A stretch of 64,000 nucleotides of DNA from Nitrospirales bacterium. Lineage in GTDB: Bacteria; Nitrospirota; Nitrospiria; Nitrospirales; UBA8639. Positions 47,871 through 64,000 of this stretch are shown here, one piece after another. A model generated the notes under the pieces. It saw only the letters and a program-made list of their open reading frames with translations, was not told the DNA's origin and made no database searches. Position 1 is the first letter of the stretch. Each line of letters starts with the position of its first letter. The translations under genes were made by a program, and so were the position numbers. The DNA lies in NCBI GenBank assembly GCA_963555755.3, contig OY820905.2, positions 2,112,001-2,176,000 on the forward strand, given 5' to 3'.

Positions 47871-47912
47871 GGTTAGGGGTCAGGTTAGGGTCAGGTTAGG
47901 GGTCAGGTTAGG
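47871..47912 (+). repeat. GGTTAGGG(G)TCA tandem array, outer part of a Y1-element left end
   Basis: 3.5 units; rejoins to GGTCAAGTCACTTGCTTCA at 54641 when the intron is removed. Confidence 0.85.
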
Positions 47913-48016
47913 GTAGAGTAGAGCACTGGTGCATACATGGAGCTGCTCTCGAACGCTTCGACGCACGCGTCTACCACGGACCATAGCAGTCAGCACTTCC
48001 CAGCGCCCCCTCATCA

Positions 48017-50010
48017 GTAGGGTCGAGGACTGGCGCGCCAACGGTAGGGTTCGGTGGCTCCTCCACCCCTTTCGGAATGGGCCTCAGTCCGACTCCCCTG
48101 GTCACGGTTCCAGTCCCCGCCACCTCAAACCCGGCGTGCTGATTTCCAGCACCGGGCTTTCCTGGATGCTTCACCTCAAGGGTTATGTGACCTATCAGCC
48201 TGGAAGGACTTTCATGCCGACCCGTTGTACCGCACTCGGTAATCTCCATATAAGCCAAGTACCGTGTAGAGCCAAACCTTACTCCACCTCTTCCAGCCAA
48301 AACCTCGACGGTGGCGCACTCGCATCATGTGCCGCCGGACCTTCCGCTCCACCCAATCCTTCACGTAGGATAAACACCGACTCGCATGCCCAATCCGGAA
48401 GTCGTTCACCCAGCCCCGTACGATCGGATTGATCATGGCGATCATCCGTCCCACCGGCTGGGATTGCCCGCGTCGGAACACTTCCTTGAGCTTCCGCAGC
48501 AACGCGGTGCGCCGCTTCACCTTCGGTATGTACTGCGGGCGCCACACTCCACGCCGCGACCGCACACGCCGAAAGTCAAAGCCCAGAAAGCCGAAGCTGC
48601 CTCCCTGACTCAGGTCCACGATTCGGCTCTTCTCCTCATTCACCTGAAGGTCTAATTGGGCCAACGCCTCTCGCAGCTTCCGCTCCGCAACCTGCGCCAG
48701 TTGTGCGTGGCGGCGATAGCCATCCACTAACACGACGAGGTCATCCGCAAACCGGACATACTCGAGATACGTATACTGGCCCTGCCGGGTTGTCTCCTTC
48801 AGCTGCTCCAGCCTCTCATCCACTTCCGTGAGATAGAGGTTGGCCAGCAGCGGGGAAATCACACCCCCTTGAGGCACCCCACGCGGGCCGGACGCCTTGA
48901 CGATGAGTTTCACCAGCCGCAGGATCGCGGGATCCTGGATGCGTCGGGCCACCTTCGCCAGCAGCCGGTCATGCCGCACCGTGTCGAAGAAGGCCGCCAG
49001 ATCCACATCAATCACTCGCGTCTTGTTCTGCACCATCGCCTGAGCCACCCGGCCAATCGCCTGATGGGCTGTCCGTTTCGGTCGATACCCATACGACCCG
49101 TCCCGAAAATCCGCCTCAAAGATCGGTTCCAGCAGGAGCTTGAGCGCTCCCTGTACCACGCGGTCCCGAATCGCGGGTATCCCTAAGACGCGGACTCGTC
49201 CACCGCCTTTCGAAATCTCCACGTGCCGGTTCCGCATCGGTCGGTAGGTCTGCGTGACCAGTTCGTCCCGTAGTCGTGCAAGAAAGGGCTCCACCCCCGT
49301 GGCCTCGATGCCAGCAAACGTCACCCCATCAATGCCGGGGGCTCCGTTGTTTTTCTTGGCCATCGAATAGGCCGCGCGTAGCGTCGCCTCTTTGCACACG
49401 TGGACGTACAAGCCCCACACCCGCCATCGCTTCTCAGCCTTCGCCTTGACGTAGAGCCGCTGTCGCAGGTCTTGCAGTGTAATGGACGCCGTTGTCATCT
49501 CGTCCCTGCCTCCCATGTTGATCACAGCCTACAGCCAGTAGGGCTCCTTTGCTCCACAGGCATGACCCTGCTTCCTCGCTCCTACGAGCCCCTCCGCCAC
49601 CCTCTCGTCTTCGGCTCACTTCCCAGAGAGCTGGTTATAGAGCCGATCTTCCTCCAGGGATTTCTCCCTGGGACGAGGAGGGCTTCTCCAGTTGCGTCGT
49701 CTGTCCTTGCTCCCGTGCTGTCGCTCTCACCCCGCCGGAGTGGCCAGGCGTCTCAGCCTTGGTTCGCCTGTCCATGCCGTCTTCGTCCTACGGACAGGGA
49801 CTCGACCTCCGAGGTTTCATACTTTCGAGGCTACCTCTGCGTTCACTTGCGTTACGGCCCGGGAACTCGCTCACCATCCTCTACGATGGCTTTGTCGATG
49901 GGCTTCAGCGTCTCGGTTTCTCTCCACGCTGCCATCCAAGCTACAGGGCTCAGGCTCTTACCCTGGTGGGCTTGCTTCCCACTGAACAGTCTCGCCTTAC
50001 CTGGACACAC
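48017..50010 (-). mobile_element. Group II intron, tandem copy A (1994 bp)
   Basis: 5' GTGTG, DV AAGCCCGGTGCTGGAAATCAGCACGCCGGGTTT, 3' CGACCCTAC. Confidence 0.93.
48212..49525 (-). CDS. ltrA: Group II intron reverse transcriptase/maturase, no endonuclease domain
   Basis: GAPGIDG, LGIPAIRDRVVQ, SYGYRP, GVPQGGVISPLLANLYL, RFADD, FLGF, domain X. Confidence 0.95.
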   Translation of the reverse strand: MINMGGRDEMTTASITLQDLRQRLYVKAKAEKRWRVWGLYVHVCKEATLRAAYSMAKKNNGAPGIDGVTFAGIEATGVEPFLARLRDELVTQTYRPMRNRHVEISKGGGRVRVLGIPAIRDRVVQGALKLLLEPIFEADFRDGSYGYRPKRTAHQAIGRVAQAMVQNKTRVIDVDLAAFFDTVRHDRLLAKVARRIQDPAILRLVKLIVKASGPRGVPQGGVISPLLANLYLTEVDERLEQLKETTRQGQYTYLEYVRFADDLVVLVDGYRRHAQLAQVAERKLREALAQLDLQVNEEKSRIVDLSQGGSFGFLGFDFRRVRSRRGVWRPQYIPKVKRRTALLRKLKEVFRRGQSQPVGRMIAMINPIVRGWVNDFRIGHASRCLSYVKDWVERKVRRHMMRVRHRRGFGWKRWSKVWLYTVLGLYGDYRVRYNGSA

Positions 50011-52004
50011 GTAGGGTCGAGGACTGGCGCGCCAACGGTAGGGTTCGGTGGCTCCTCCACCCCTTTCGGAATGGGCCTCAGTCCGACTCCCCTGGTCACG
50101 GTTCCAGTCCCCGCCACCTCAAACCCGGCGTGCTGATTTCCAGCACCGGGCTTTCCTGGATGCTTCACCTCAAGGGTTATGTGACCTATCAGCCTGGAAG
50201 GACTTTCATGCCGACCCGTTGTACCGCACTCGGTAATCTCCATATAAGCCAAGTACCGTGTAGAGCCAAACCTTACTCCACCTCTTCCAGCCAAAACCTC
50301 GACGGTGGCGCACTCGCATCATGTGCCGCCGGACCTTCCGCTCCACCCAATCCTTCACGTAGGATAAACACCGACTCGCATGCCCAATCCGGAAGTAGTT
50401 CACCCAGCCCCGTACGATCGGATTGATCATGGCGATCATCCGTCCCACCGGCTGGGATTGCCCGCGTCGGAACACTTCCTTGAGCTTCCGCAGCAACGCG
50501 GTGCGCCGCTTCACCTTCGGTATGTACTGCGGGCGCCACACTCCACGCCGCGACCGCACACGCCGAAAGTCAAAGCCCAGAAAGCCGAAGCTGCCTCCCT
50601 GACTCAGGTCCACGATTCGGCTCTTCTCCTCATTCACCTGAAGGTCTAATTGGGCCAACGCCTCTCGCAGCTTCCGCTCCGCGACCTGCGCCAGTTGTGC
50701 GTGGCGGCGATAGCCATCCACTAACACGACGAGGTCATCCGCAAACCGGACATACTCGAGATACGTATACTGGCCCTGCCGGGTTGTCTCCTTCAGCTGC
50801 TCCAGCCTCTCATCCACTTCCGTGAGATAGAGGTTGGCCAGCAGCGGGGAAATCACACCCCCTTGAGGCACCCCACGCGGGCCGGACGCCTTGACGATGA
50901 GTTTCACCAGCCGCAGGATCGCGGGATCCTGGATGCGTCGGGCCACCTTCGCCAGCAGCCGGTCATGCCGCACCGTGTCGAAGAAGGCCGCCAGATCCAC
51001 ATCAATCACTCGCGTCTTGTTCTGCACCATCGCCTGAGCCACCCGGCCAATCGCCTGGTGGGCTGTCCGTTTCGGTCGATACCCATACGACCCATCACGA
51101 AAATCCGCCTCAAAGATCGGTTCCAGCAGGAGCTTGAGCGCTCCCTGTACCACGCGGTCCCGAATCGCGGGTATCCCTAAGACGCGGACTCGTCCACCGC
51201 CTTTCGAAATCTCCACGTGCCGGTTCCGCATCGGTCGGTAGGTCTGCGTGACCAGTTCGTCCCGTAGTCGTGCAAGAAAGGGCTCCACCCCCGTGGCCTC
51301 GATGCCAGCAAACGTCACCCCATCAATGCCGGGGGCTCCGTTGTTTTTCTTGGCCATCGAATAGGCCGCGCGTAGCGTCGCCTCTTTGCACACGTGGACG
51401 TACAGGCCCCACACCCGCCATCGCTTCTCAGCCTTCGCCTTGACGTAGAGCCGCTGTCGCAGGTCTTGCAGTGTAATGGACGCCGTTGTCATCTCGTCCC
51501 TGCCTCCCATGTTGATCACAGCCTACAGCCAGTAGGGCTCCTTTGCTCCACAGGCATGACCCTGCTTCCTCGCTCCTACGAGCCCCTCCGCCACCCTCTC
51601 GTCTTCGGCTCACTTCCCAGAGAGCTGGTTATAGAGCCGATCTTCCTCCAGGGATTTCTCCCTGGGACGAGGAGGGCTTCTCCAGTTGCGTCGTCTGTCC
51701 TTGCTCCCGTGCTGTCGCTCTCACCCCGCCGGAGTGGCCAGGCGTCTCAGCCTTGGTTCGCCTGTCCATGCCGTCTTCGTCCTACGGACAGGGACTCGAC
51801 CTCCGAGGTTTCATACTTTCGAGGCTACCTCTGCGTTCACTTGCGTTACGGCCCGGGAACTCGCTCACCATCCTCTACGATGGCTTTGTCGATGGGCTTC
51901 AGCGTCTCGGTTTCTCTCCACGCTGCCATCCAAGCTACAGGGCTCAGGCTCTTACCCTGGTGGGCTTGCTTCCCACTGAACAGTCTCGCCTTACCTGGAC
52001 ACAC
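50011..52004 (-). mobile_element. Group II intron, tandem copy B
   Basis: Directly abuts copies A and C (..CCCTAC|GTGTG..). Confidence 0.93.
50206..51519 (-). CDS. ltrA: Group II intron reverse transcriptase/maturase
   Basis: As copy A, but WVNYF instead of WVNDF. Confidence 0.95.
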   Translation of the reverse strand: MINMGGRDEMTTASITLQDLRQRLYVKAKAEKRWRVWGLYVHVCKEATLRAAYSMAKKNNGAPGIDGVTFAGIEATGVEPFLARLRDELVTQTYRPMRNRHVEISKGGGRVRVLGIPAIRDRVVQGALKLLLEPIFEADFRDGSYGYRPKRTAHQAIGRVAQAMVQNKTRVIDVDLAAFFDTVRHDRLLAKVARRIQDPAILRLVKLIVKASGPRGVPQGGVISPLLANLYLTEVDERLEQLKETTRQGQYTYLEYVRFADDLVVLVDGYRRHAQLAQVAERKLREALAQLDLQVNEEKSRIVDLSQGGSFGFLGFDFRRVRSRRGVWRPQYIPKVKRRTALLRKLKEVFRRGQSQPVGRMIAMINPIVRGWVNYFRIGHASRCLSYVKDWVERKVRRHMMRVRHRRGFGWKRWSKVWLYTVLGLYGDYRVRYNGSA

Positions 52005-53998
52005 GTAGGGTCGAGGACTGGCGCGCCAACGGTAGGGGTCGGTGGCTCCTCCACCCCTTTCAGAGTGGGCCTCAATCCGACTCCCCTGGTCACGGTTCCA
52101 GTCCCCGCCACCTCAAACCCGGCGTGCTGATTTCCAGCACCGGGCTTTCCTGGATGCTTCACCTCAAGGGTTATGTGACCTATCAGCCTGGAAGGACTTT
52201 CATGCCGACCCGTTGTACCGCACTCGGTAATCTCCATATAAGCCAAGTACCGTGTAGAGCCAAACCTTACTCCACCTCTTCCAGCCAAAACCTCGACGGT
52301 GGCGCACTCGCATCATGTGCCGCCGGACCTTCCGCTCCACCCAATCCTTCACGTAGGATAAACACCGACTCGCATGCCCAATCCGGAAGTAGTTCACCCA
52401 GCCCCGTACGATCGGATTGATCATGGCGATCATCCGTCCCACCGGCTGGGATTGCCCGCGTCGGAACACTTCCTTGAGCTTCCGCAGCAACGCGGTGCGC
52501 CGCTTCACCTTCGGTATGTACTGCGGGCGCCACACTCCACGCCGCGACCGCACACGCCGAAAGTCAAAGCCCAGAAAGCCGAAGCTGCCTCCCTGACTCA
52601 GGTCCACGATCCGGCTCTTCTCCTCATTCACCTGAAGGTCTAATTGGGCCAACGCCTCTCGCAGCTTCCGCTCCGCAACCTGCGCCAGTCGTGCGTGGCG
52701 GCGATAGCCATCCACTAACACGACGAGGTCATCCGCAAACCGGACATACTCGAGATACGTATACTGGCCCTGCCGGGTTGTCTCCTTCAGCTGCTCCAGC
52801 CTCTCATCCACTTCCGTGAGATAGAGGTTGGCCAGCAGCGGGGAAATCACACCCCCTTGAGGCACCCCACGCGGGCCGGACGCCTTGACGATGAGTTTCA
52901 CCAGCCGCAGGATCGCGGGATCCTGGATGCGTCGGGCCACCTTCGCCAGCAGCCGGTCATGCCGCACCGTGTCGAAGAAGGCCGCCAGATCCACATCAAT
53001 CACTCGCGTCTTGTTCTGCACCATCGCCTGAGCCACCCGGCCAATCGCCTGATGGGCTGTCCGTTTCGGTCGATACCCATACGACCCGTCCCGAAAATCC
53101 GCCTCAAAGATCGGTTCCAGCAGGAGCTTGAGCGCTCCCTGTACCACGCGGTCCCGAATCGCGGGTATCCCTAAGACGCGGACTCGTCCACCGCCTTTCG
53201 AAATCTCCACGTGCCGGTTCCGCATCGGTCGGTAGGTCTGCGTGACCAGTTCGTCCCGTAGTCGTGCAAGAAAGGGCTCCACCCCCGTGGCCTCGATGCC
53301 AGCAAACGTCACCCCATCAATGCCGGGGGCTCCGTTGTTCTTCTTCGCCATCGCATAGGCCGCGCGTAGCGTCGCCTCTTTGCACACGTGGACGTACAGG
53401 CCCCACACCCGCCATCGCTTCTCAGCCTTCGCCTTGACGTAGAGCCGCTGTCGCAGGTCTTGCAGTGTAATGGACGCCGTTGTCATCTCGTCCCTGCCTC
53501 CCATGTTGATCACAGCCTACAGCCAGTAGGGCTCCTTTGCTCCACAGGCATTACCCTGCTTCCTCGCTCCTACGAGCCCCTCCGCCACCCTCTCGTCTTC
53601 GACTCACTTCCCAGAGAGCTGGTTATAGAGCCGATCTTCCTCCAGGGATTTCTCCCTGGGACGAGGAGGGCTTCTCCAGTTGCGTCGTCTGTCCTTGCTC
53701 CCGTGCTGTCGCTCTCACCCCGCCGGAGTGGCCAGGCGTCTCAGCCTTGGTTCGCCTGTCCATGCCGTCTTCGTCCTACGGACAGGGACTCGACCTCCGA
53801 GGTTTCATACTTTCGAGGCTACCTCTGCGTTCACTTGCGTTACGGCCCGGGAACTCGCTCACCATCCTCTACGATGGCTTTGTCGATGGGCTTCAGCGTC
53901 TCGGTTTCTCTCCACGCTGCCATCCAAGCTACAGGGCTCCGGCTCTTACCCTGGTGGGCTTGCTTCCCACTGAACAGTCTCGCCTTACCTGGACACAC
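52005..53998 (-). mobile_element. Group II intron, tandem copy C
   Basis: Its 5' end abuts the host intron DV hairpin. Confidence 0.93.
52200..53513 (-). CDS. ltrA: Group II intron reverse transcriptase/maturase
   Basis: As copy B, with AAYAM and HARLA variants. Confidence 0.95.
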   Translation of the reverse strand: MINMGGRDEMTTASITLQDLRQRLYVKAKAEKRWRVWGLYVHVCKEATLRAAYAMAKKNNGAPGIDGVTFAGIEATGVEPFLARLRDELVTQTYRPMRNRHVEISKGGGRVRVLGIPAIRDRVVQGALKLLLEPIFEADFRDGSYGYRPKRTAHQAIGRVAQAMVQNKTRVIDVDLAAFFDTVRHDRLLAKVARRIQDPAILRLVKLIVKASGPRGVPQGGVISPLLANLYLTEVDERLEQLKETTRQGQYTYLEYVRFADDLVVLVDGYRRHARLAQVAERKLREALAQLDLQVNEEKSRIVDLSQGGSFGFLGFDFRRVRSRRGVWRPQYIPKVKRRTALLRKLKEVFRRGQSQPVGRMIAMINPIVRGWVNYFRIGHASRCLSYVKDWVERKVRRHMMRVRHRRGFGWKRWSKVWLYTVLGLYGDYRVRYNGSA

Positions 53999-54701
53999 AT
54001 CCGTGCGTATGGTTTTCCCATACACGGCTTTCCGATGTTCTTCTTCCAGCGGCATGCGTCTGTCATCAGGCAATAGCCACATTCAGACTTGGCCTTCTGA
54101 GATAGTTTCCTCTGTAGTGTCCTGATCGTGCTCGGGGTGGTTAGCGCAATGGCAATCCCCTGATCCTCCACTCGTCGGAAACGTGAACAAAGTAGGGTCC
54201 CTTCCCTCGGGCCGGGTTGTGTTGTCCCAGGCTCTCCAACGGTACTATGAACCCCTCCGACTCCCACGACGGCCCGCAGCGATTTCGGTATCCCTTATAC
54301 GCCTCAGTTGCTGGTTCTGCGCCAGCACCGTCGCGGGTCTCCCGTCCTGCACGGTGTCTCTTCCGCCACATGCCATCCCTGCTACCCCGGAAGATCCTGA
54401 GGGTGGGTGTTCGTTCTACTCCCTCAAACGGCGGCCTTCCCCTTCTGACCACAGGGTCGGCATCTCCAATTCGTTTACGAGGCTACATCTAGGTTCGCTT
54501 GCGCTACGGCCTGCGGCTTTGCCCATGGGAAACTTCAACCCCTGATTACTCAGACGCTGCTTCCTGGTGCTAGAAAGGTGTACGAACAACTCCTTTCGCG
54601 GGACTTCAACCCGCTAGACACACCGCCGATGACGGCATGCGGTCAAGTCACTTGCTTCATGATAAAGAAAAGGAAAAGGGGTCAGAAAAGGGGTCAGAAA
54701 A

Positions 54702-55734
54702 GGGGTCAAGTCACTTGCTTCATGATAAAAAAGTAGTTAGACTCTGGTCATGCCTCGACCTCCTCGGATGGAATACGAGCATGCGGTGTATCATGTCATG
54801 AATCGTGGCCGGGCTCGGCACCCGGTGTTTCATGATGCCCGGTACTATCGAGCCTTTCTCGACACGTTGGCCGAGCTGCATACCCGCTTCCAGGGTGTGA
54901 TTCATGCCTATTGCTTGATGGGCAATCACTATCATGTCTTGCTGGAAACTCCCAGGGCCAATCTCAGTCGCATGATGCGCCATCTTAACGGGGTGTATAC
55001 GCAACGGCATAATCGTCTCAAACGTACTGATGGCTCTTTGTTTCGAGGCCGCTATAAAGCCATTTTGGTGGAGCACGATGCCTATTTGCTCCACGTGTCC
55101 CGGTATATCCATCGAAACCCTCTTGACGGCATACGGCCGCTGGTCACGAATTTGTCTGATTATCCCTGGTCGAGCTATCCGACATATATCGGTCAAGCGA
55201 AGCCGGCACCGTGGTTGTGCCGGGAACCGACGTATCGCCTGCTTGGGCATGTGCACCGGTATCGCGGGTATGCTCGCTACGTGCTAGAGGGCAACGATAA
55301 AGAAATCGAGTATTTTTCCCAACGGGGTAATAGGGCGGCCATTATGGGAGGGCAGGAGTTCAAATCTTGGGTCTATGACGAATTACTGCCGGATCTTGAA
55401 GCGGAGGAGAAAGGGCAGGTGATCCAGCCGAGTCTTGCAATCGACACTATGATCACTGGGGTGGCCAAGGCCTATCGCACGACACCAGACCGGCTGACCA
55501 TGGTAGTGAAAGGGCCGCAAAAAGGGAATGAGGCTCGGAAACTGGCGATGTATCTGTGTCAGGAATTAGCGGATGTGAAACTTCAGGACATTGCGCCCTG
55601 CTTCCATCTGCGTCATAGCGGTTCGGTGAGTTTTATCACCCACCAGGTCAGAAAGAAGAAACGAGACGAGAAGGGATTTGCCGCTAGAATGAACGAGGTG
55701 ATTGAAAGTATTCTGAAGCAATCGACTTGACCCC
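54702..55734 (+). mobile_element. TIR-bounded HUH/Y1 (RAYT-like) element, copy 1
   Basis: Left GGGGTCAAGTCACTTGCTTCA and right TGAAGCAATCGACTTGACCCC are inverted at 19/21 positions; GAAAAGGGGTCA x3 on the left. Confidence 0.88.
54750..55730 (+). CDS. Y1/HUH (RAYT-like) transposase with C-terminal DnaA-like HTH
   Basis: YHVMNRG, YCLMGNHYH (HUH), LFRGRYKA, YIHRNP, YPWSSY; C-terminal ARKLAMYLCQE..LQDIAPCF..SVS. Confidence 0.92.
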   Translation: MPRPPRMEYEHAVYHVMNRGRARHPVFHDARYYRAFLDTLAELHTRFQGVIHAYCLMGNHYHVLLETPRANLSRMMRHLNGVYTQRHNRLKRTDGSLFRGRYKAILVEHDAYLLHVSRYIHRNPLDGIRPLVTNLSDYPWSSYPTYIGQAKPAPWLCREPTYRLLGHVHRYRGYARYVLEGNDKEIEYFSQRGNRAAIMGGQEFKSWVYDELLPDLEAEEKGQVIQPSLAIDTMITGVAKAYRTTPDRLTMVVKGPQKGNEARKLAMYLCQELADVKLQDIAPCFHLRHSGSVSFITHQVRKKKRDEKGFAARMNEVIESILKQST

Positions 55735-56190
55735 TATTCGACCCCTATTCTTGACCCCTATTCATAGGGCGGCCATTATGGGAGGGCAGGAGTTCAAATC
55801 TTGGGTCTATGACGAATTACTGCCGGATCTTGAAGCGGAGGAGAAAGGGCAGGTGATCCAGCCGAGTCTTGCAATCGACACTATGATCACTGGGGTGGCC
55901 AAGGCCTATCGCACGACACCAGACCGGCTGACCATGGTAGTGAAAGGGCCGCAAAAAGGGAATGGGGCTCGGAAACTGGCGATGTATCTGTGTCAGGAAT
56001 TAGCGGATGTGAAACTTCAGGACATTGCGCCCTGCTTCCATCTGCGTCATAGCGGTTCGGTGAGTTTTATCACCCACCAGGTCAGAAAGAAGAAACGAGA
56101 CGAGAAGGGATTTGCCGCTAGAATGAACGAGGTGATTGAAAGTATTCTGAAGCAATCGACTTGACCCCTATTTGACTTGACCCCTATTTT
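55735..56190 (+). repeat. 3'-coterminal duplications of the Y1 element end (including a ~400-bp copy of the gene 3' part)
   Basis: GACCCCTATTC units, then 55765-56168 repeats 55330-55734, then GACTTGACCCCTATT. Confidence 0.9.
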
Positions 56191-57812
56191 ATTATGTCAT
56201 AAACAATTTGTAACGTTAATTATAGTACAAAACCTATATTGAGAAATCATTTAGCGATCAAAAAATTGATCAAAATTAATTAAAATTAGCCCTAACAAAG
56301 TGAATTTTCTTATTTTTCCGATCTCCACATTTTGTTCGATTCTTAAATAGTTTATAGTTATACCAGTTTTGTTGAGTGGTCATAGTAGAAGTCAGCTAAT
56401 GTTATTTTTATTAACTTTGACATCTTTAGGATTTCTTGGATTTTTGTCTTATGATGTTTTTGCTGAACCTACATTCACACTTGAGTGGGATGGAACTTCA
56501 CAACATGATAATACCGTAAATGTTGGTGACACTATTGCTTGGGAATGGATTGGTCTTCAACATAATTTAGTATGGGATGACGAAACAGGAGTTCCTCTAC
56601 CTGATCCATCGTTTGGATTTCCAGATATCGTTGATGAACCAAATACCTACGCATTTACATTTACTGAACCTGGAGAATACTATTATCACTGTACAATTCA
56701 TTCAGAGCAATCTGGTGTTGTAACTGTTCTACCGTCGCCTATCACACTTGAGTGGGATGGAACTTCACAACATGATAATACCGTAAATGTTGGTGACACT
56801 ATTGCTTGGGAATGGATTGGTCTTCAACATAATTTAGTATGGGATGACGAAACAGGAGTTCCTCTACCTGATCCATCGTTTGGATTTCCAGATATCGTTG
56901 ATGAACCAAATACCTACGCATTTACATTTACTGAACCTGGAGAATACAACTATCACTGTACAGTCCATGAAGAACAATTTGGAGTTGTAATTGTTGAATC
57001 ATCTGAAGAACCTGTACTTGCTTGGGCTGGATCTTCACAACATGATAATACCGTAAATGTTGGTGATACACTTACTTGGGAATGGGGTGGAAATAGTCAT
57101 AATTTAGTATGGGATCCAGAATCAGGAGTTCCTCTACCTGATCCATCATTTGGATTTCCAGATATTGTTAATGCTCCAAATACATACGCATTTACATTTA
57201 CTGAACCTGGACAATACTTCTATCACTGTGAAGTTCACTCACAACAATTTGGAGTTGTAACTGTTCTACCGCCAGCAAGTTGGCCAAACTGGGGAGGGGA
57301 CTTGTCTAACACAAAGAATGCCTCAACCGAATCTCAACTGTCTCCTGATAATATTGACGCTCTCATAGAAGATTGGATATACACCACTGATGGCTCTGTA
57401 GTTTCATTTGTTACTGTTCAAGGAAATGATGCATACTTTGTTAGTAGAGTAACTCCTGATGGTCAATCTTTTCCTGCAGCAGATGCAATGCTTAATTCTA
57501 TTAATCGTATAACTGGAGAACTCAATTGGGCATTCCCAATTTCAAGTTATGTTGAATCCTCATCTAATCCATCTCTTGTAAATGATGATGCTAGAGTCTC
57601 ACCTGCAATACAAGATGATATTTTAGTTGTGGGTACACAATATGCAGCAAATGGTGCAACTGTCTTTGCAGTTGACAGAAACACTGGCGATGAACTTTGG
57701 GAAACTGCAGTAGATGATCACATATATTCTATAATCACAAGCTCTCCTACAATTTATCAGGATAGAGTCTATGTTGGTGTTTCTTCTCTTGAAGAATTAT
57801 GGGCAGGAATTA

Positions 57813-59399
57813 CCCAAGATCCGCGATGGGTTTGGTCAACAGAGGTCCTTTGGCAAAACCCACGTGTTCGCGCCATTGCTTAGTCAATGGTCTGGCTGGA
57901 TTTGAGCCACCTCCCAGAGTTGCCTGTCCTGACATGGGATCGACCAGCCTTTTGGGCAGACCACTCCCTTCCTGCTTCCTTCTTCTCTTGTGCTGTCCCC
58001 TGCCCCGGCTTAATAAGGCTGGGCAGCTTCTGCACAGCGCGTCCGAATCTCCTCACACAAGCCCCACAGCTGTTGTTGCACTTTGAGGATCACGGCACCA
58101 GCATGCCGGACCACTTTGCCCGCCACCTGATACAGCCGCCAACGCACCGTGCGCACTTGGCACTGGCTCCAGGCATAGGGCAACGCCAACAACTTGAACA
58201 ACACAAACAGGTTGTAGGCTAACACGCCAATGCGAAAGAAGACGGCATTGGCCGCGAAGGTCCCACACGGAAGCCGTTCCATGCCAAAGCCACTCTTCAG
58301 TTCTTTGATGCGATTCTCGCTGGTCTCGCCCCGCTGGTTGTACCATCGTACAATCTCCTCAGGGGTTCCATCTCGGTTCGTCGCAATCAGCGTGTAGCGC
58401 AGGCTGGGGGCCTCGGGGGCAAACAGATCCTGTTGCACGGGCCGTCGCAATACGATGAGGCGAAAGGCTTGCTTGGTCTTCGCCATACAATGTACCGTTT
58501 CAGCGAGATGGCCATCTCGGTAGGGTTGCCACTGGCTCTCAGGGATGGCGGCAATGACGGCCTGCACGGCCGTATCCTGCACGCCCCCAATCGCAAACGT
58601 CACGTTGTGCTCCTCGCACCAATTGAACAACTCCGCTTGGTACGCCGCACTATCCGCCCGCACATGAGCAATCCGTTTGCCTTTGGGCATCTGCGCCGCA
58701 CACGCCTGGGTGAATTCAAGATTGCGGGACGCCGGAGCCTCATTCCCTTCACGAAACTCCTCCCCAAGCACCAGCCCATTTTCCGCCAGGTGCCCCAGCA
58801 TCGGCAGATAGCCTCGCTCCCCCTTGTACGTCCATTTGGCTGCCTGCTTCTCCGCGACAATCTGCGTGGCATCAAGATCGAGGGTATAGTCCGTGCGCGG
58901 TTCCCGCTTCAACGCCCGCCGGATCTGCTGCTGATTGACGACGGCTAAACTTGCTAAACCATCCTTCTCCCCCATGCGTCGCAGCCAATCGCCCGTGGCA
59001 TCGGCACTGGGAACCACGGGGAGTCGCAGCACGGCCCGCAAGCCCGCATCCTCGCGAATCTGGCGCAGATCCTCCAGCGTCCGGCCCCCGCCATGCAACA
59101 TCAGCAGCAGGGGCTCGACAAATTGGGCGGGGTGATAGCCGATGCGGCTCCCGGGCGCGGGCAAGGCCGCATTGAGTTGCCGGGGCACATTCATGGCTTG
59201 GAGAAACTCCCCGAACAGCGCCAGCCCGCCATGAGCGGTGAGCTGTTCGTCGGTGGGCTCAAGCTTGAACGGAAGAACGGTTTGTGGCATCATTCGTTTC
59301 ACCTCGTTGGTGAGGAGTGGCTAAGGGGGTAGGCACCCGTATCTTAGCAAATCAACGAGGTTTTTTTATGCCCAAAATAAATCCATCGCGGATCTTGGG
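57813..59399 (-). mobile_element. IS1380-family element, complete
   Basis: TIRs CCCAAGATCCGCGATGG; 5-bp TSD AATTA at 57808-57812 and 59400-59404. Confidence 0.95.
58010..59302 (-). CDS. IS1380-family transposase
   Basis: LTAHGGL, LDLDAT, VRADSA, YNQRGETSENRIKELK, LAYNL. Confidence 0.93.
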   Translation of the reverse strand: MKRMMPQTVLPFKLEPTDEQLTAHGGLALFGEFLQAMNVPRQLNAALPAPGSRIGYHPAQFVEPLLLMLHGGGRTLEDLRQIREDAGLRAVLRLPVVPSADATGDWLRRMGEKDGLASLAVVNQQQIRRALKREPRTDYTLDLDATQIVAEKQAAKWTYKGERGYLPMLGHLAENGLVLGEEFREGNEAPASRNLEFTQACAAQMPKGKRIAHVRADSAAYQAELFNWCEEHNVTFAIGGVQDTAVQAVIAAIPESQWQPYRDGHLAETVHCMAKTKQAFRLIVLRRPVQQDLFAPEAPSLRYTLIATNRDGTPEEIVRWYNQRGETSENRIKELKSGFGMERLPCGTFAANAVFFRIGVLAYNLFVLFKLLALPYAWSQCQVRTVRWRLYQVAGKVVRHAGAVILKVQQQLWGLCEEIRTRCAEAAQPY

Positions 59400-61365
59400 A
59401 ATTATTCCTGACTATGATTGTTGTACCTTTATTGGTAGTTTAGTGTCCCTTGATTTGAATACTGGTGATATATTGTGGAAATCTTATACTGCACCACTTT
59501 TACCTGAAGGTACACTTCCTAGTGATTGGTATTCAGGTAATGCTGTTTGGGGAAGCTCACCATCAATTGATCCATCACGAAATTCTGTATACATAGCAAC
59601 AGGTAACAACTATCAAACCCCAAATGACTTGGAAGAATGTATTGCAAATGCAGAAACATTACCTACTCCTGAAGAAGTTGAAGCTGCAAAACTGATTTGT
59701 CAAGAAGACATTGATGTTCCAGGAAATCTATTTGATGCTATAGTCTCTTATGATCTTGATACAGGAGATGTAAACTGGGCTAACAAACTATGGAGTTCAG
59801 ACTCTTGGAATGTTGCTTGCTTCTTGGGAGGTGAAAACTGTCCAGATCCATTTGCACCTGACTATGACTTTGGCCAAGCTCCTATGCTCTTTACAGTGTT
59901 TGTAGATGATGACCCAGTAGATCTAGTAGGTTCCGGTCAAAAGAGTGGAATCTTCTGGGCGCTTGATCGTGATATTGGAGAAATTGTTTGGACTGTTAAT
60001 CCTGGACCTGGAAGTACACTTGGAGGTATGCAATGGGGATCAGCAGTTGATGATCAAAGAGTTTATGGTCAAATAACAGGTACTGATGAAGCAGGACCAT
60101 ATACCATTTTTGATTTTGAAGGTACTCCAACTGTAATTACTGGTGGTTCATGGTGGGCAGTAGATGCTGCAACTGGAGAATTACTTTGGCAAACTGCAGC
60201 ACCTGATGGCAGTTTAACATGGGGACAAGTCAGCGTAGCTAATGGATTATTATTTGCTGGAACTTTGGGTAATGCTCAAGATGGTATGATGGTTATTATG
60301 GATGCTGCAACAGGTGATATCCTTTGGACAAAAGACATTGGCGGTTCTGTTTCTGCAGCTCCTACAATTGTTAATGGCCAACTAATCTGGCCAACTGGAT
60401 ATGGAGGCTTTGGCGGTTCTTACAATAATGAAATATTTGCATTTAGTTTAGAATCAATTGGAATTGATTTTGATAATGATGGATTTACTGAAGAAGAAGA
60501 TTGTGATGATAATAATCCTGAGATAAATCCAGATGCATTTGATATTCCAAATAACGGCATTGATGAAAATTGTGATGGAGTAGATGCACAAGGTGGTGGT
60601 GTGGACCTTAGTGGAGTATTAGATGCAATTGAAGATGCAAAGACTATGATACTTGATGCACTAGGATTACTTGATATAAAATTAGATCAAGTTTCTGAAA
60701 AGATTGACAACATTGATACAGGTTCTGATAGTGTAGAACGAGTTTCAGTAACTGTGAAGATGCCAGGTGTTGTAATGAAACCAGGTGAAGTGTTTGTACT
60801 ATTAGATACAACTGGTTCTGGAACTTTAGAAACAGTTCATGTTGCAGTTAATTTACCATGTTCAAAAAATAACGAGCCAAGATTCTCAGTACTGGCAGGA
60901 GTTGCAGGTGGTTCACTAGAACCAGTAATTAGCAGTTCTGATGACTTTACTGGATTTAAGGGACCAAAGAAGACCTGCACATTCCATGATACAATACTTG
61001 CAAGTGAAGTTCCAGGTGGAGAAATTACTGATGTTATTTTAATCAATGATGGAAACAAAAAATCTACTTTACCAAGATATTCAGTAGTAACCATAACTGG
61101 TACATATTCTCCTTGATTTTATTTTTATTAATTTTACGCCTAGATAAAATTAGAGTGTCAATGTGATCTGACAAATCGCCCTCCCAGTGTCATGATTTAA
61201 GGCAAAAATTGTAAGGGTCTTGAACTAACTTGACAAGTCACCTCGAGGGCCTACATTTTTTGGTTAAAGACTCTCACATTACATTTCATTCTAAAATTAG
61301 TGTAAACTTCAGTAAAGCACCCTAGATAAATACGAGATAATTTTATTAAAAAAGGGGTCAAAAAA

Positions 61366-62398
61366 GGGGTCAAGTCACTTGCTTCATGATAAAAAAGTAG
61401 TTAGACTCTGGTCATGCCTCGACCTCCTCGGATGGAATACGAGCATGCGGTGTATCATGTCATGAATCGTGGCCGGGCTCGGCACCCGGTGTTTCATGAT
61501 GCCCGGTACTATCGAGCCTTTCTCGACACGTTGGCCGAGCTGCATACCCGCTTCCAGGGTGTGATTCATGCCTATTGCTTGATGGGCAATCACTATCATG
61601 TCTTGCTGGAAACTCCCAGGGCCAATCTCAGTCGCATGATGCGCCATCTTAACGGGGTGTATACGCAACGGCATAATCGTCTCAAACGTACTGATGGCTC
61701 TTTGTTTCGAGGCCGCTATAAAGCCATTTTGGTGGAGCACGATGCCTATTTGCTCCACGTGTCCCGGTATATCCATCGAAACCCTCTTGACGGCATACGG
61801 CCGCTGGTCACGAATTTGTCTGATTATCCCTGGTCGAGCTATCCGACATATATCGGTCAAGCGAAGCCGGCACCGTGGTTGTGCCGGGAACCGACGTATC
61901 GCCTGCTTGGGCATGTGCACCGGTATCGTGGGTATGCTCGCTACGTGCTAGAGGGCAACGATAAAGAAATCGAGTATTTTTACCAACGGGGCAATAGGGC
62001 GGCCATTATGGGAGGGCAGGAGTTCAAATCTTGGGTCTATGACGAATTACTGCCGGATCTTGAAGCGGAGGAGAAAGGGCAGGTGATCCAGCCGAGTCTT
62101 GCAATCGACACTATTATCACTGGGGTGGCCAAGGCCTATCGCACGACACCAGACCGGCTGACCATGGTAGTGAAAGGGCCGCAAAAAGGGAATGAGGCTC
62201 GGAAACTGGCGATGTATCTGTGTCAGGAATTAGCGGATGTGAAACTTCAGGACATTGCGCCCTGCTTCCATCTGCGTCATAGCGGTTCGGTGAGTTTTAT
62301 CACCCACCAGGTCAGAAAGAAGAAACGAGACGAGAAGGGATTTGCCGCTAGAATGAACGAGGTGATTGAAAGTATTCTGAAGCAATCGACTTGACCCC
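61366..62398 (+). mobile_element. TIR-bounded HUH/Y1 element, copy 2
   Basis: Same TIRs as copy 1; AAAAAGGGGTCA x2 on the left. Confidence 0.88.
61414..62394 (+). CDS. Y1/HUH (RAYT-like) transposase with C-terminal HTH
   Basis: Differs from 54750-55730 at two residues. Confidence 0.92.
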   Translation: MPRPPRMEYEHAVYHVMNRGRARHPVFHDARYYRAFLDTLAELHTRFQGVIHAYCLMGNHYHVLLETPRANLSRMMRHLNGVYTQRHNRLKRTDGSLFRGRYKAILVEHDAYLLHVSRYIHRNPLDGIRPLVTNLSDYPWSSYPTYIGQAKPAPWLCREPTYRLLGHVHRYRGYARYVLEGNDKEIEYFYQRGNRAAIMGGQEFKSWVYDELLPDLEAEEKGQVIQPSLAIDTIITGVAKAYRTTPDRLTMVVKGPQKGNEARKLAMYLCQELADVKLQDIAPCFHLRHSGSVSFITHQVRKKKRDEKGFAARMNEVIESILKQST

Positions 62399-62668
62399 TA
62401 TTGCTGAAGCAATCGACTTGACCCCTATTTCCTATTTTTGACCCCTATTTCTATTTCCTATTTTGACCCCTATTTCTAGAATGAACGAGGTGATTGAAAG
62501 TATTCTGAAGCAATCGACTTGACCCCTATTTCCTATTTTGACCCCTATTTGAAGCAATCGACTTGACCCCTATTTCTATTTCCTATTTTGACCCCTATTT
62601 CTAGAATGAACGAGGTGATTGAAAGTATTCTGGAGCAATCGACTTGACCCCTATTTGACCCCTATTTT
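62391..62668 (+). repeat. Array of 10 TTGACCCCTATT ends made of nested co-terminal copies
   Basis: Units of ~11-55 bp, all finishing GACCCCTATT. Confidence 0.92.
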
Positions 62669-62965
62669 GCCCCCCATACATTGCCTTTGCATAGCGCCAA
62701 GATAATTCACCACCGCCAGTTTCTTCACCGTCAACGTACACTCGCCTAAGTCTTCTTCGACTAAGCCTTCCACGAGATACGGCTTTCCGCCGGTTAGCAC
62801 ATGGCCGTATTTTCGAAAGGTCGCGGGAAAGAACGTGGCATCGTAGAGGCCAGTGAGGTCTTCGAAGGTGGTAAATTCCATGGGCTGGCCGTTGTTCATT
62901 TCAGCAAACTTTTCCGTTATCAACCAGACGACCATTCTGACTTGCTTGCCGGCGTAGCGGTGTAT
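62669..62965 (-). pseudogene. DNA polymerase III alpha (DnaE-type) C-terminal OB-fold fragment
   Basis: GKQVRMVVWLIT..GQPMEFTTFEDLTGLYDATFFP..YLVEGLVE. Confidence 0.7.
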
Positions 62966-63078
62966 CTCCGAGGGTGGACTTGACCGGTGCCTTCCAATGA
63001 ATGCCCCCCCTTTCCATGCAGCCAACGCCAATGGATAATTCTTTTTACGGCAAAAACAAAAACTGGATGGGGGGGGGG

Positions 63079-63513
63079 TTACCGGCGTATGGGAAGACGC
63101 CAATCAGCAAGAAGACGCACATGGCCAAGACGTCCAGCGCGTTTGAAATAATCTCGATCGGCAGTGACATATACTCCATCAGACTGGAGTGCCACCACAT
63201 GGTAACAACTATCATAAAACGTCACCCCTTTGATCTCTCGCATAAGCTGAAGCACCGCTTGACAGTCGTCAACTGTCAGATGAACTTCTGGAAGCTCATA
63301 GTCCAGAAGCGCACTCATCAGTTCAGCAGCAAGTTCAGGTTGTTTCAAACCTAGAACATTCCCAACTTCATAACGCCACAACGTCGGCACCTGAAGGTCA
63401 ATCGCCTCGGAAAGGAACGCCCGTTGAAGCTCAAGAGCCTTCGGAAGATCCTTCCCCTCATCTCGTTCTAGAACCCATTTCAGGATTACAGAGGCATCCG
63501 GCACTACAATCAT
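63079..63513 (-). CDS. vapC: VapC-family PIN-domain toxin
   Basis: VPDASVILKW, YEVGN, TFYDSCY, VTAD. Confidence 0.9.
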   Translation of the reverse strand: MIVVPDASVILKWVLERDEGKDLPKALELQRAFLSEAIDLQVPTLWRYEVGNVLGLKQPELAAELMSALLDYELPEVHLTVDDCQAVLQLMREIKGVTFYDSCYHVVALQSDGVYVTADRDYFKRAGRLGHVRLLADWRLPIRR

Positions 63514-63520
63514 AAGGAAG

Positions 63521-63745
63521 TCACCTTCGTCGATCTCGGCGGACCAAGGCCACAATCTCTTCACTCTTCAACTTGGCGCTTCTAGTGCGCAACTGTTGGA
63601 TTTGTTTCCTCGCGGTTTCACGTTTCCGCCGAAGCAACTCCTTACGTAAGGCCTCATTGATCACCTGACTGCGCTTTCGCGCTGGCACAAGCTTCAGCAG
63701 GTCTTCCCGCACGTCTTCATCAATGGACACATTCATCTTAGGCAT
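63521..63745 (-). CDS. Ribbon-helix-helix antitoxin (VapB-like)
   Basis: KMNVSIDEDV..RSQVINEALR; directly upstream of the PIN gene. Confidence 0.8.
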   Translation of the reverse strand: MPKMNVSIDEDVREDLLKLVPARKRSQVINEALRKELLRRKRETARKQIQQLRTRSAKLKSEEIVALVRRDRRR

Positions 63746-63826
63746 AATCAAGGCTCCTTTCTTTAGATCCTATAATTATAGCATTAAATATGCACCTAAA
63801 AAAGACGCCTAAAAAATTAGAGAAAG

Positions 63827-63924
63827 GGCGTCAGGGCCCATTTTTCCTTACCCAATAGTTCATGGATTCTAGTCAGTATGGCTAGTTATCAATTCTCAAG
63901 AGAGAAGAAAAGGTTCCTGACACC
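63827..63924. mobile_element. ~100-bp mini-element with GG(C/T)GTCAGG inverted ends
   Basis: GGCGTCAGGGCCCATTTTT ... AAAAGGTTCCTGACACC. Confidence 0.5.
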
Positions 63925-64000
63925 TTTTGCCCAAGATGGGTGCGCGGTGATGCACGTTTGTTGATTTGGACCGATAAGGGCCAACTGGTGGACGGTCAGC

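Follow-up and report, generated by a model that had tools for sequence, protein, structure and literature searches.

The 64,000-nucleotide stretch of a Nitrospirales bacterium analysed here (the window; contig OY820905.2, positions 2,112,001 to 2,176,000) carries two copies, A1 and A2, of an element in which a gene for a Y1 nuclease of the HUH type (TIRYT) is enclosed by terminal inverted repeats (TIRs), and this element is very probably a recently mobile TIRtron. Each unit is 1,033 bp long (54702-55734 and 61366-62398), with 4 differences between the copies, and a third full copy (99.6%) is found at G000:C1:490027-491059; the three are 99.4-99.6% identical to one another and their flanks are unrelated. 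An initial annotation, made from the sequence alone, had recognised the near-identical pair and its stop codon, a TGA, within the right end, and had proposed mobility. The three copies in unrelated flanks, together with families of MITEs (miniature inverted-repeat transposable elements), bear out movement as a two-ended unit. The 21-bp inverted ends that it described are present but imperfect, as they match at 19 of 21 positions. The features of the element are as follows.

54698..55738, + strand: TIRtron copy A1 including its 4-nt tails (AAAA and TATT), from sequence comparison; contigs of the read runs X1, X2 and X5 have their first base at 54698, and one of X8 stops at 55738.
54702..54722, + strand: left TIR of A1, GGGGTCAAGTCACTTGCTTCA, with a 19/21 match to the right end.
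54750..55730, + strand: TIRYT gene, 326 amino acids, with H60-Y61-H62, catalytic Y119 (YxxxNP), S141-S142 and a helix-turn-helix (HTH) domain like DnaA domain IV at about residues 230-322.
55714..55734, - strand: right TIR of A1, with the stop codon inside.
61362..62402, + strand: TIRtron copy A2 including its tails, with an intact open reading frame at 61414-62394.

The boundaries of the element lie outside the TIRs. When 22 near-identical pairs were compared (44 end comparisons), positions +1 to +4 outside GACCCC were identical in 44, 44, 43 and 43 cases, +5 in 18 and +6 in 8, and the read contigs branch at the tail boundary, with three runs beginning at 54698 and one contig ending at 55738. 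Therefore, the AAAA and TATT previously seen beside both copies, which extend for exactly 4 nt on each side before the sequences diverge, belong to the element. Comparison by eye with unoccupied paralogues places 13 junctions at +4/+5, with at most 2 nt of microhomology and no target motif. The base at +5 is C or T in 90/99 ends and in 56/60 outermost junctions, while +6 is mixed. A nick near GGGG/CCCC had been predicted, and the boundary is indeed close by, but it lies 4-5 nt outside the motif and not at it. None of four end stretches, folded as single-stranded DNA, was more stable than its shuffled counterparts (z -1.33 to 0.03), in agreement with the annotated absence of repetitive extragenic palindrome (REP) hairpins. 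The absence of a target site duplication holds for short duplications, but one MITE composite, described below, is flanked by an exact duplication of 2,025 bp.

Outside the ends stand reiterations of the end itself, which we term stutter; their outer boundary is fixed (+4/+5) and their inner start varies (2-405 nt). Stutter follows 86 of 1,349 TGACCCY sites, compared with 0-2 for each of eight control motifs, and is present at 26/48 paired ends in this genome. Among homologues it stands at 20/107 ends versus 2/2,008 random sites with variable tails allowed, a recount of an earlier tally made with a fixed 4-nt tail (8/109). Restart points peak 7-8 nt inside the end (54/109 units), with a maximum of 405 nt, and viewed on the GGGG strand the 5' start of each stutter unit is constant whereas its 3' end varies. 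The +5 base and the strand bias were counted after five of the 65 arrays had been set aside as chance occurrences or ordinary tandem repeats. In 25/28 cases the apparent extra bases at the junctions are those of the next +5 base outward; they are therefore copied, which rules out an untemplated nucleotide. The following arrays flank A1 and A2.

54641..54697, - strand: left stutter array of A1, with restarts 7, 7, 2 and ~28 nt inside the end and the outermost unit split by an intron at TGACC^CC.
55739..56190, + strand: right stutter array of A1, with a 405-bp re-copy (55764-56168) of the 3' end and TIR of A1, a local copy because it is closest to A1.
61349..61361, - strand: left stutter unit of A2.
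62403..62668, + strand: long right stutter array of A2, with restarts 2, 7, 8, 21, 22 and ~51 nt inside the end.

The protein has the annotated architecture of a Y1 HUH nuclease with a C-terminal DnaA-like HTH. Pfam matches are Y1_Tnp (E 2e-12) and Bac_DnaA_C (E 5e-6, under the curated cut-off), a family profile compared with structures matched DnaA domain IV (E 2e-12), and the predicted model (pLDDT 86.9) has its best fold matches in TnpA-REP (PDB 4ER8, the top match) and DnaA domain IV. H60, H62 and Y119, together with Y61, are invariant in 33/33 aligned sequences, i.e. the window protein and 32 of 78 homologue loci. The REP-associated tyrosine transposase (RAYT) profile NF047646 gives 62.7 bits, short of its cut-off of 80. 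With kinship controlled by whole-protein identity alone, identity in helix 287-300 rises with that of TIR positions 9-21: the partial rho is 0.51 for 27 proteins and 0.30 for 39 proteins of less than 60% identity, the latter a value reached by the best window in 0 of 2,000 permutations. The catalytic segments mostly lack such co-variation, and residues 1-14 reach 0.20. Reading of the ends by the HTH, as the initial annotation had suggested, is thus supported by the co-variation of its recognition helix with the inner TIR. The left TIR lies 45-48 nt upstream of the start codon in 39/60 homologues, and TAnnnT lies 4-9 nt upstream of it in 48/60 (window 54715-54750; counted without a control). 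The left end may possibly hold a leaderless promoter, with the site of the HTH overlapping it; a sigma-70 scan found no promoter there.

The element belongs to a larger population of ends. The genome encodes at least four further full-length homologues at 29-49% identity, plus fragments, and contains 107 ends in four families, with 25 pairs forming full elements or MITEs (112-489 bp); MITEs and derivatives that carry both tails include four of 140 bp, about eight of 138 bp and two of 488 bp. Conserved inverted ends were also found among homologues in named genomes, where the end motif is present at the left in 60/74 and at the right in 49/66 scorable cases and at both ends of 35/62 scorable loci, with a median length of 1,027 bp. 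The motif takes the form GGGGTCAA in 65/109 homologue ends and GGGGTCAG in 26/109. Two copies at 98.4% identity occur in another genome (L040/L043), and two 97% copies lie in direct orientation ~4.5 kb apart in a further one (L070/L073). A plasmid search returned 1 of 72,556 records with E below 1e-30. As regards target sites, the element at C1:761600 stands in place of 2,684 bp present in its paralogue, an event that is old because the paralogues are 88-96% identical, and the exact 2,025-bp duplication mentioned above abuts both sides of a three-MITE composite (C1:4100383-4106369). Relatives offered no empty site, only partial matches at 66-81% identity. The GGGG strand lies on the lagging-strand template in 18/20 solo ends of family B (p 0.0013) and in 42/60 of all arrays (p 0.03). 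The window itself holds five solo family B ends (5379, 10389, 11525, 31731, 45325), all on one strand. Elsewhere, two arrays of four direct MITEs (G000:C1:88390-96836 and 4096400-4106369; L181, L182) bracket AbiE toxin-antitoxin, PepSY and RelE-like genes and contain duplications of 617 bp and 2,025 bp. Two loose-end sequences from an RNA run, one of them of another TIR family judging by its inner part, are absent from the genome and were not used.

Elements of this kind are already known by name. Di Nocera, De Gregorio and Rocco (2013; PMC3733652) described in their open-access text TIRtrons, RAYT-like genes (TIRYTs) flanked by TIRs, some with GGGGWSAS, and the text of Quentin et al. (2018; PMC6006769, 10.1101/279083) equates TIRYTs with TnpA-Y1 subclass 2.1, in which 20 of 26 TIRYTs fall. 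Therefore, the novelty claimed by the initial annotation for a TIR-flanked Y1 class with an HTH falls. The third copy, the tails, the stutter, the related MITE families and the intron homing described below go beyond what it had observed. As in the text of PMC3733652, the present Y1 gene is accompanied by TIRs and not REPs, at a set distance and with overlap of the 3' end, and the TIRs are likewise dispersed as singles, dimers and clusters; the end motif GGGGTCAA comes near to GGGGWSAS, fitting 7/8 positions with A as the eighth base. In contrast, that text does not report near-identical copies or tails, nor does it mention stutter, an analysis of targets, cargo or a mechanism; mobility, tails, stutter or mechanism of TIRtrons were not found in open-access text, and tails or multi-copy cases may appear in figures or supplements. 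Among the full-text matches listed, two works deal with TIRYTs or TIRtrons, each of them computational.

The protein fits subclass 2.1.2 of Quentin et al. by the motifs of their Table 1, since NH[YF]H (here NHYH), YxxxNP, the SS motif and a C-terminal Bac_DnaA_C-like HTH are present and REPs are absent, with FR in place of FQ and YIHRNP in place of Y[IV]HLNP (R for L). Features of subclass 2.3 are absent, as the motif is YIHRNP instead of YVDLNP and the core is of normal length without insertions. The text of PMC6006769 describes the DnaA-like HTH of subclass 2.1.2, leaves open whether it reads the TIR, puts the copy number per genome at 1.9 and the mean identity at 49%, and finds subclass 2.1 in ~15% of the genomes surveyed, whereas here three copies exceed 99% and helix and TIR co-vary. 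A duplication rate of 6.2%, the highest among RAYTs, is given for RAYT group 1 in the text of PMC5581495. The E. coli TnpA-REP/REPtron system (Messing et al. 2012, PMC3479197) shares, according to its text, the HUH/Y1 fold and a proposed 3'-OH resolution, while the present system has no hairpin or GTAG guide, has an extra DnaA-like domain and moves the gene itself. RAYTs in the strict sense are single-copy genes with GTAG-tagged REP hairpins, and neither feature is found here. The IS200/IS605 insertion sequences (IS608, ISDra2) have the Y1 fold, and their lagging-template bias is hinted at by our solo ends; but here there are no subterminal hairpins, the motif is YxxxNP and not YxxxQ, the ends are symmetric and there is no tetra- or pentanucleotide target. 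IS91 enzymes are larger Y2 proteins. The family resembles the present one, as far as the text of PMC13181058 describes it, in HUH chemistry, the lack of a short target site duplication, events with one boundary fixed and the other variable, and co-mobilisation of neighbouring DNA, but the ori and ter ends of IS91 are different from each other and its target is a tetranucleotide, whereas here the ends are alike and only a one-base preference is seen.

We propose a mechanism in which each end is resolved on its own, and we give it about an even chance of being right. In each TIR, the DnaA-like HTH would bind the inner part, which is variable. The HUH domain would nick the GGGG strand outside the TIR, at a measured distance (purine^N4-GGGGTCA, sometimes one base further out), with the enzyme remaining on the 5' end of the element side through a phosphotyrosine. 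This phosphotyrosine could then be resolved by any arriving free 3'-OH, with a preference for purine-ended ones. Should this be the 3'-OH of the flank itself, extended by polymerase 6-400 nt into the element, a stutter unit would be formed, and should it be a 3' end from elsewhere, such as that of a nascent strand at a fork, the result would be movement of the end. Separate resolution of the two ends would explain the lack of a short target site duplication, as well as the deletions or long duplications, the solo ends, the MITE arrays and the composites of element, DNA and element. The boundary of the element is fixed and the partners to which it is joined are nearly arbitrary, which fits a phosphotyrosine on the element's GGGG strand. 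The scheme is akin to the one-ended events of IS91 (PMC13181058), but with two ends that are alike. For monomeric TnpA-REP, the text of PMC3479197 proposes that any 3'-OH may resolve the phosphotyrosine, HUH cleavage leaving a 5'-phosphotyrosine and a 3'-OH.

Several observations weigh against this proposal. One junction lies at +6 and several are uninformative. Tails change over longer times, as solo B ends with similar inner sequence have different tails, and homologue tails span 4-10 nt. Nor are the tails fixed in the window, where stutter units beyond the group II introns described below (47872-47912) carry TAAC where A has TTTT, either because the tail was replaced or because copies of the intron recombined. 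The co-variation of HTH and TIR is only partly freed of the effect of kinship. Strand bias is absent from family C (29/63), and that of family B was scored on solo ends. Only two target cases can be traced on both sides, and 0 of the 25 paired elements have both flanks adjacent in a paralogue, so that the empty sites which the initial annotation wished to see were not found.

The DNA between A1 and A2 is relevant to a further claim of the initial annotation, namely that the element may capture cargo. The ~5 kb of foreign-looking DNA that it placed between the direct copies is in part what it seemed: the interval of 5.6 kb comprises ~3.6 kb at 37-38% GC, together with a 1,587-bp IS1380 at 59% GC and the 405-bp element re-copy. 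Genome GC is 51%, and 2-kb windows below 42% GC make up 0.5%. The interval contains one interrupted gene.

56369..57812, + strand: 5' part of the cargo gene, three cupredoxin repeats and the start of a pyrroloquinoline quinone (PQQ)-type beta-propeller, 37% GC.
57813..59399, - strand: IS1380 within the cargo gene, with 5 bp duplicated (AATTA); further copies of its ends are present in other parts of the genome.
59400..61116, + strand: 3' part of the cargo gene, the remaining propeller, a MopE-type motif and an unnamed C-terminal domain, 38% GC.

Capture of this cargo by the element is plausible. The low-GC DNA is bounded by the two inner arrays, beyond which GC is 50-58%, and brackets of direct repeats recur, as in the two four-MITE arrays and the 97% copies L070/L073. 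It is, however, quite possible, if short of an even chance, that the enzyme is mobile and the cargo was not captured, in which case two independent insertions into an AT-rich island with loss of the outer parts, or a circle of one copy plus cargo recombining into a resident copy, would have produced the same arrangement. The region is a hotspot for insertion sequences and introns, and low-GC islands show no genome-wide link to the ends (5/37 near ends versus a random mean of 2.0 and maximum of 7, an enrichment that is not significant). A1 and A2 are moreover not identical, and their 4 differences equal the number between A1 and the distant copy, which counts against capture, as A1 and A2 therefore need not stem from one event. 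A cargo-free allele was not found among the contigs of 4 of 22 runs, a negative that is weak for that reason. Therefore, of the initial claim of capture, the confinement of AT-rich DNA between the copies stands, while genome-wide enrichment and a cargo-free allele to back it were not found.

No donor of the cargo was identified; among 40 relatives one had a 32% match, and a metagenome search returned loci that were mostly short motif matches. Atlas matches to viral clusters (0.88-0.90) are a lead only. Short stretches of 61150-61256 recur in contigs of other AT-rich DNA, and within 56190-61350 the C-terminal domain of the cargo and an AT-rich box upstream may resemble thaumarchaeal genes. Cargo depth is near flank depth in two of three read runs. 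In run X2, depth to the right of A2 (62630-64000) is 70 compared with 201-253 in the cargo, about one third, which differs from X1 and X5 and is perhaps due to a loss beside A2 in part of the population. In the same region, a fragment with a DnaE-like OB-fold (62651-63751) is cut at the array of A2 and recurs 1.2 kb downstream, the repeats enclosing a PIN toxin-antitoxin pair.

The polarity of cleavage could also be the opposite of that proposed above, although we consider this unlikely. The TGACCCC strand would then be cut at N4^Y, leaving the 3'-OH on the element, which would be transferred to relaxed N^Y targets as at the right end of IS608, and stutter would arise by transfer onto a sister copy of the same end. 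The pyrimidine at +5 in 90/99 ends, which is equally compatible with a cut on this other strand and counts against our proposal to that extent, echoes the C^T cut preferred by TnpA-REP, and the main restarts are pyrimidines as well (T or C at -7/-8, C at -2). However, some restarts begin at purines, units of 6 nt and copying through +5 are more simply explained by polymerase extension, and the bias of the solo ends places the other strand on the lagging template.

Concerted transposition of both ends through a linear or circular intermediate, without target site duplication, is less likely again and appears quite improbable; stutter, long duplications and deletions would then be later by-products of abortive nicking, slippage or adjacent deletion. 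Whole units do carry both tails (the three A copies, the 140-bp and 138-bp MITEs and the 488-bp derivatives), and L040/L043 offer another case of two close copies. On the other hand, solo ends are numerous, no empty site with adjacent flanks was seen for the 25 elements, and the circular junctions that the initial annotation suggested looking for were absent from the contigs of the 4 runs, which is weak evidence since only contigs of 4 of 22 runs were covered. Segmental duplication is ruled out because exactly 4 nt are shared outside each end, the long shared flanks that would have indicated it not being seen, and the third copy has other flanks; an assembly artefact is unlikely, as three contig sets give the same boundary and one contig runs from end to cargo, although the whole locus is not covered by any single read contig and the contigs do not resolve the long arrays.

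Although the class has a name, how hairpin-less Y1 enzymes move DNA is a question that this genome makes directly testable, because it contains intact multi-copy elements and MITEs and allows the position and strand of the cut, as well as its base preference, to be predicted. If capture of a 3'-OH by single ends is true, it would provide a route of gene capture and local rearrangement distinct from DDE composites or IS91, and possibly a tool for DNA end-labelling or joining. More broadly, and rather doubtfully, TIRtrons might be 3'-end-capture transposons, whose protein-linked 5' TIR ends ligate to any 3'-OH; the two ends of a duplicated element would seize and install foreign DNA, here the copper/PQQ-propeller gene of 37% GC, which would stem from a distant donor rich in AT, and MITEs would build cassette-like arrays.

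The ends of the element also serve as insertion sites for a group II intron, and the left coordinate given by the initial annotation (54641) marks the insertion point of an intron stack.

47913..54640, - strand: group II intron stack (746 + 3 x 1,994 bp) in a TIR, at TGACC^CC.

Intron 5' ends follow TGACC in 12/12 cases in the genome, 9 of them within recognisable A- or C-type TIRs, and intron 3' ends are followed by CC in 7/7. Beyond the stack (~47872-47912), the further stutter units with the TAAC tail cut off an IS1380-like remnant. The intron starts with GCAUG and ends with CUCUAC, in the window (47913-54640) and at 11 other sites in G000:C1; five traceable units are ~2,740 bp long, and the unit in the window consists of three tandem 1,994-bp introns encoding a reverse transcriptase inside domain V/VI of an outer intron.

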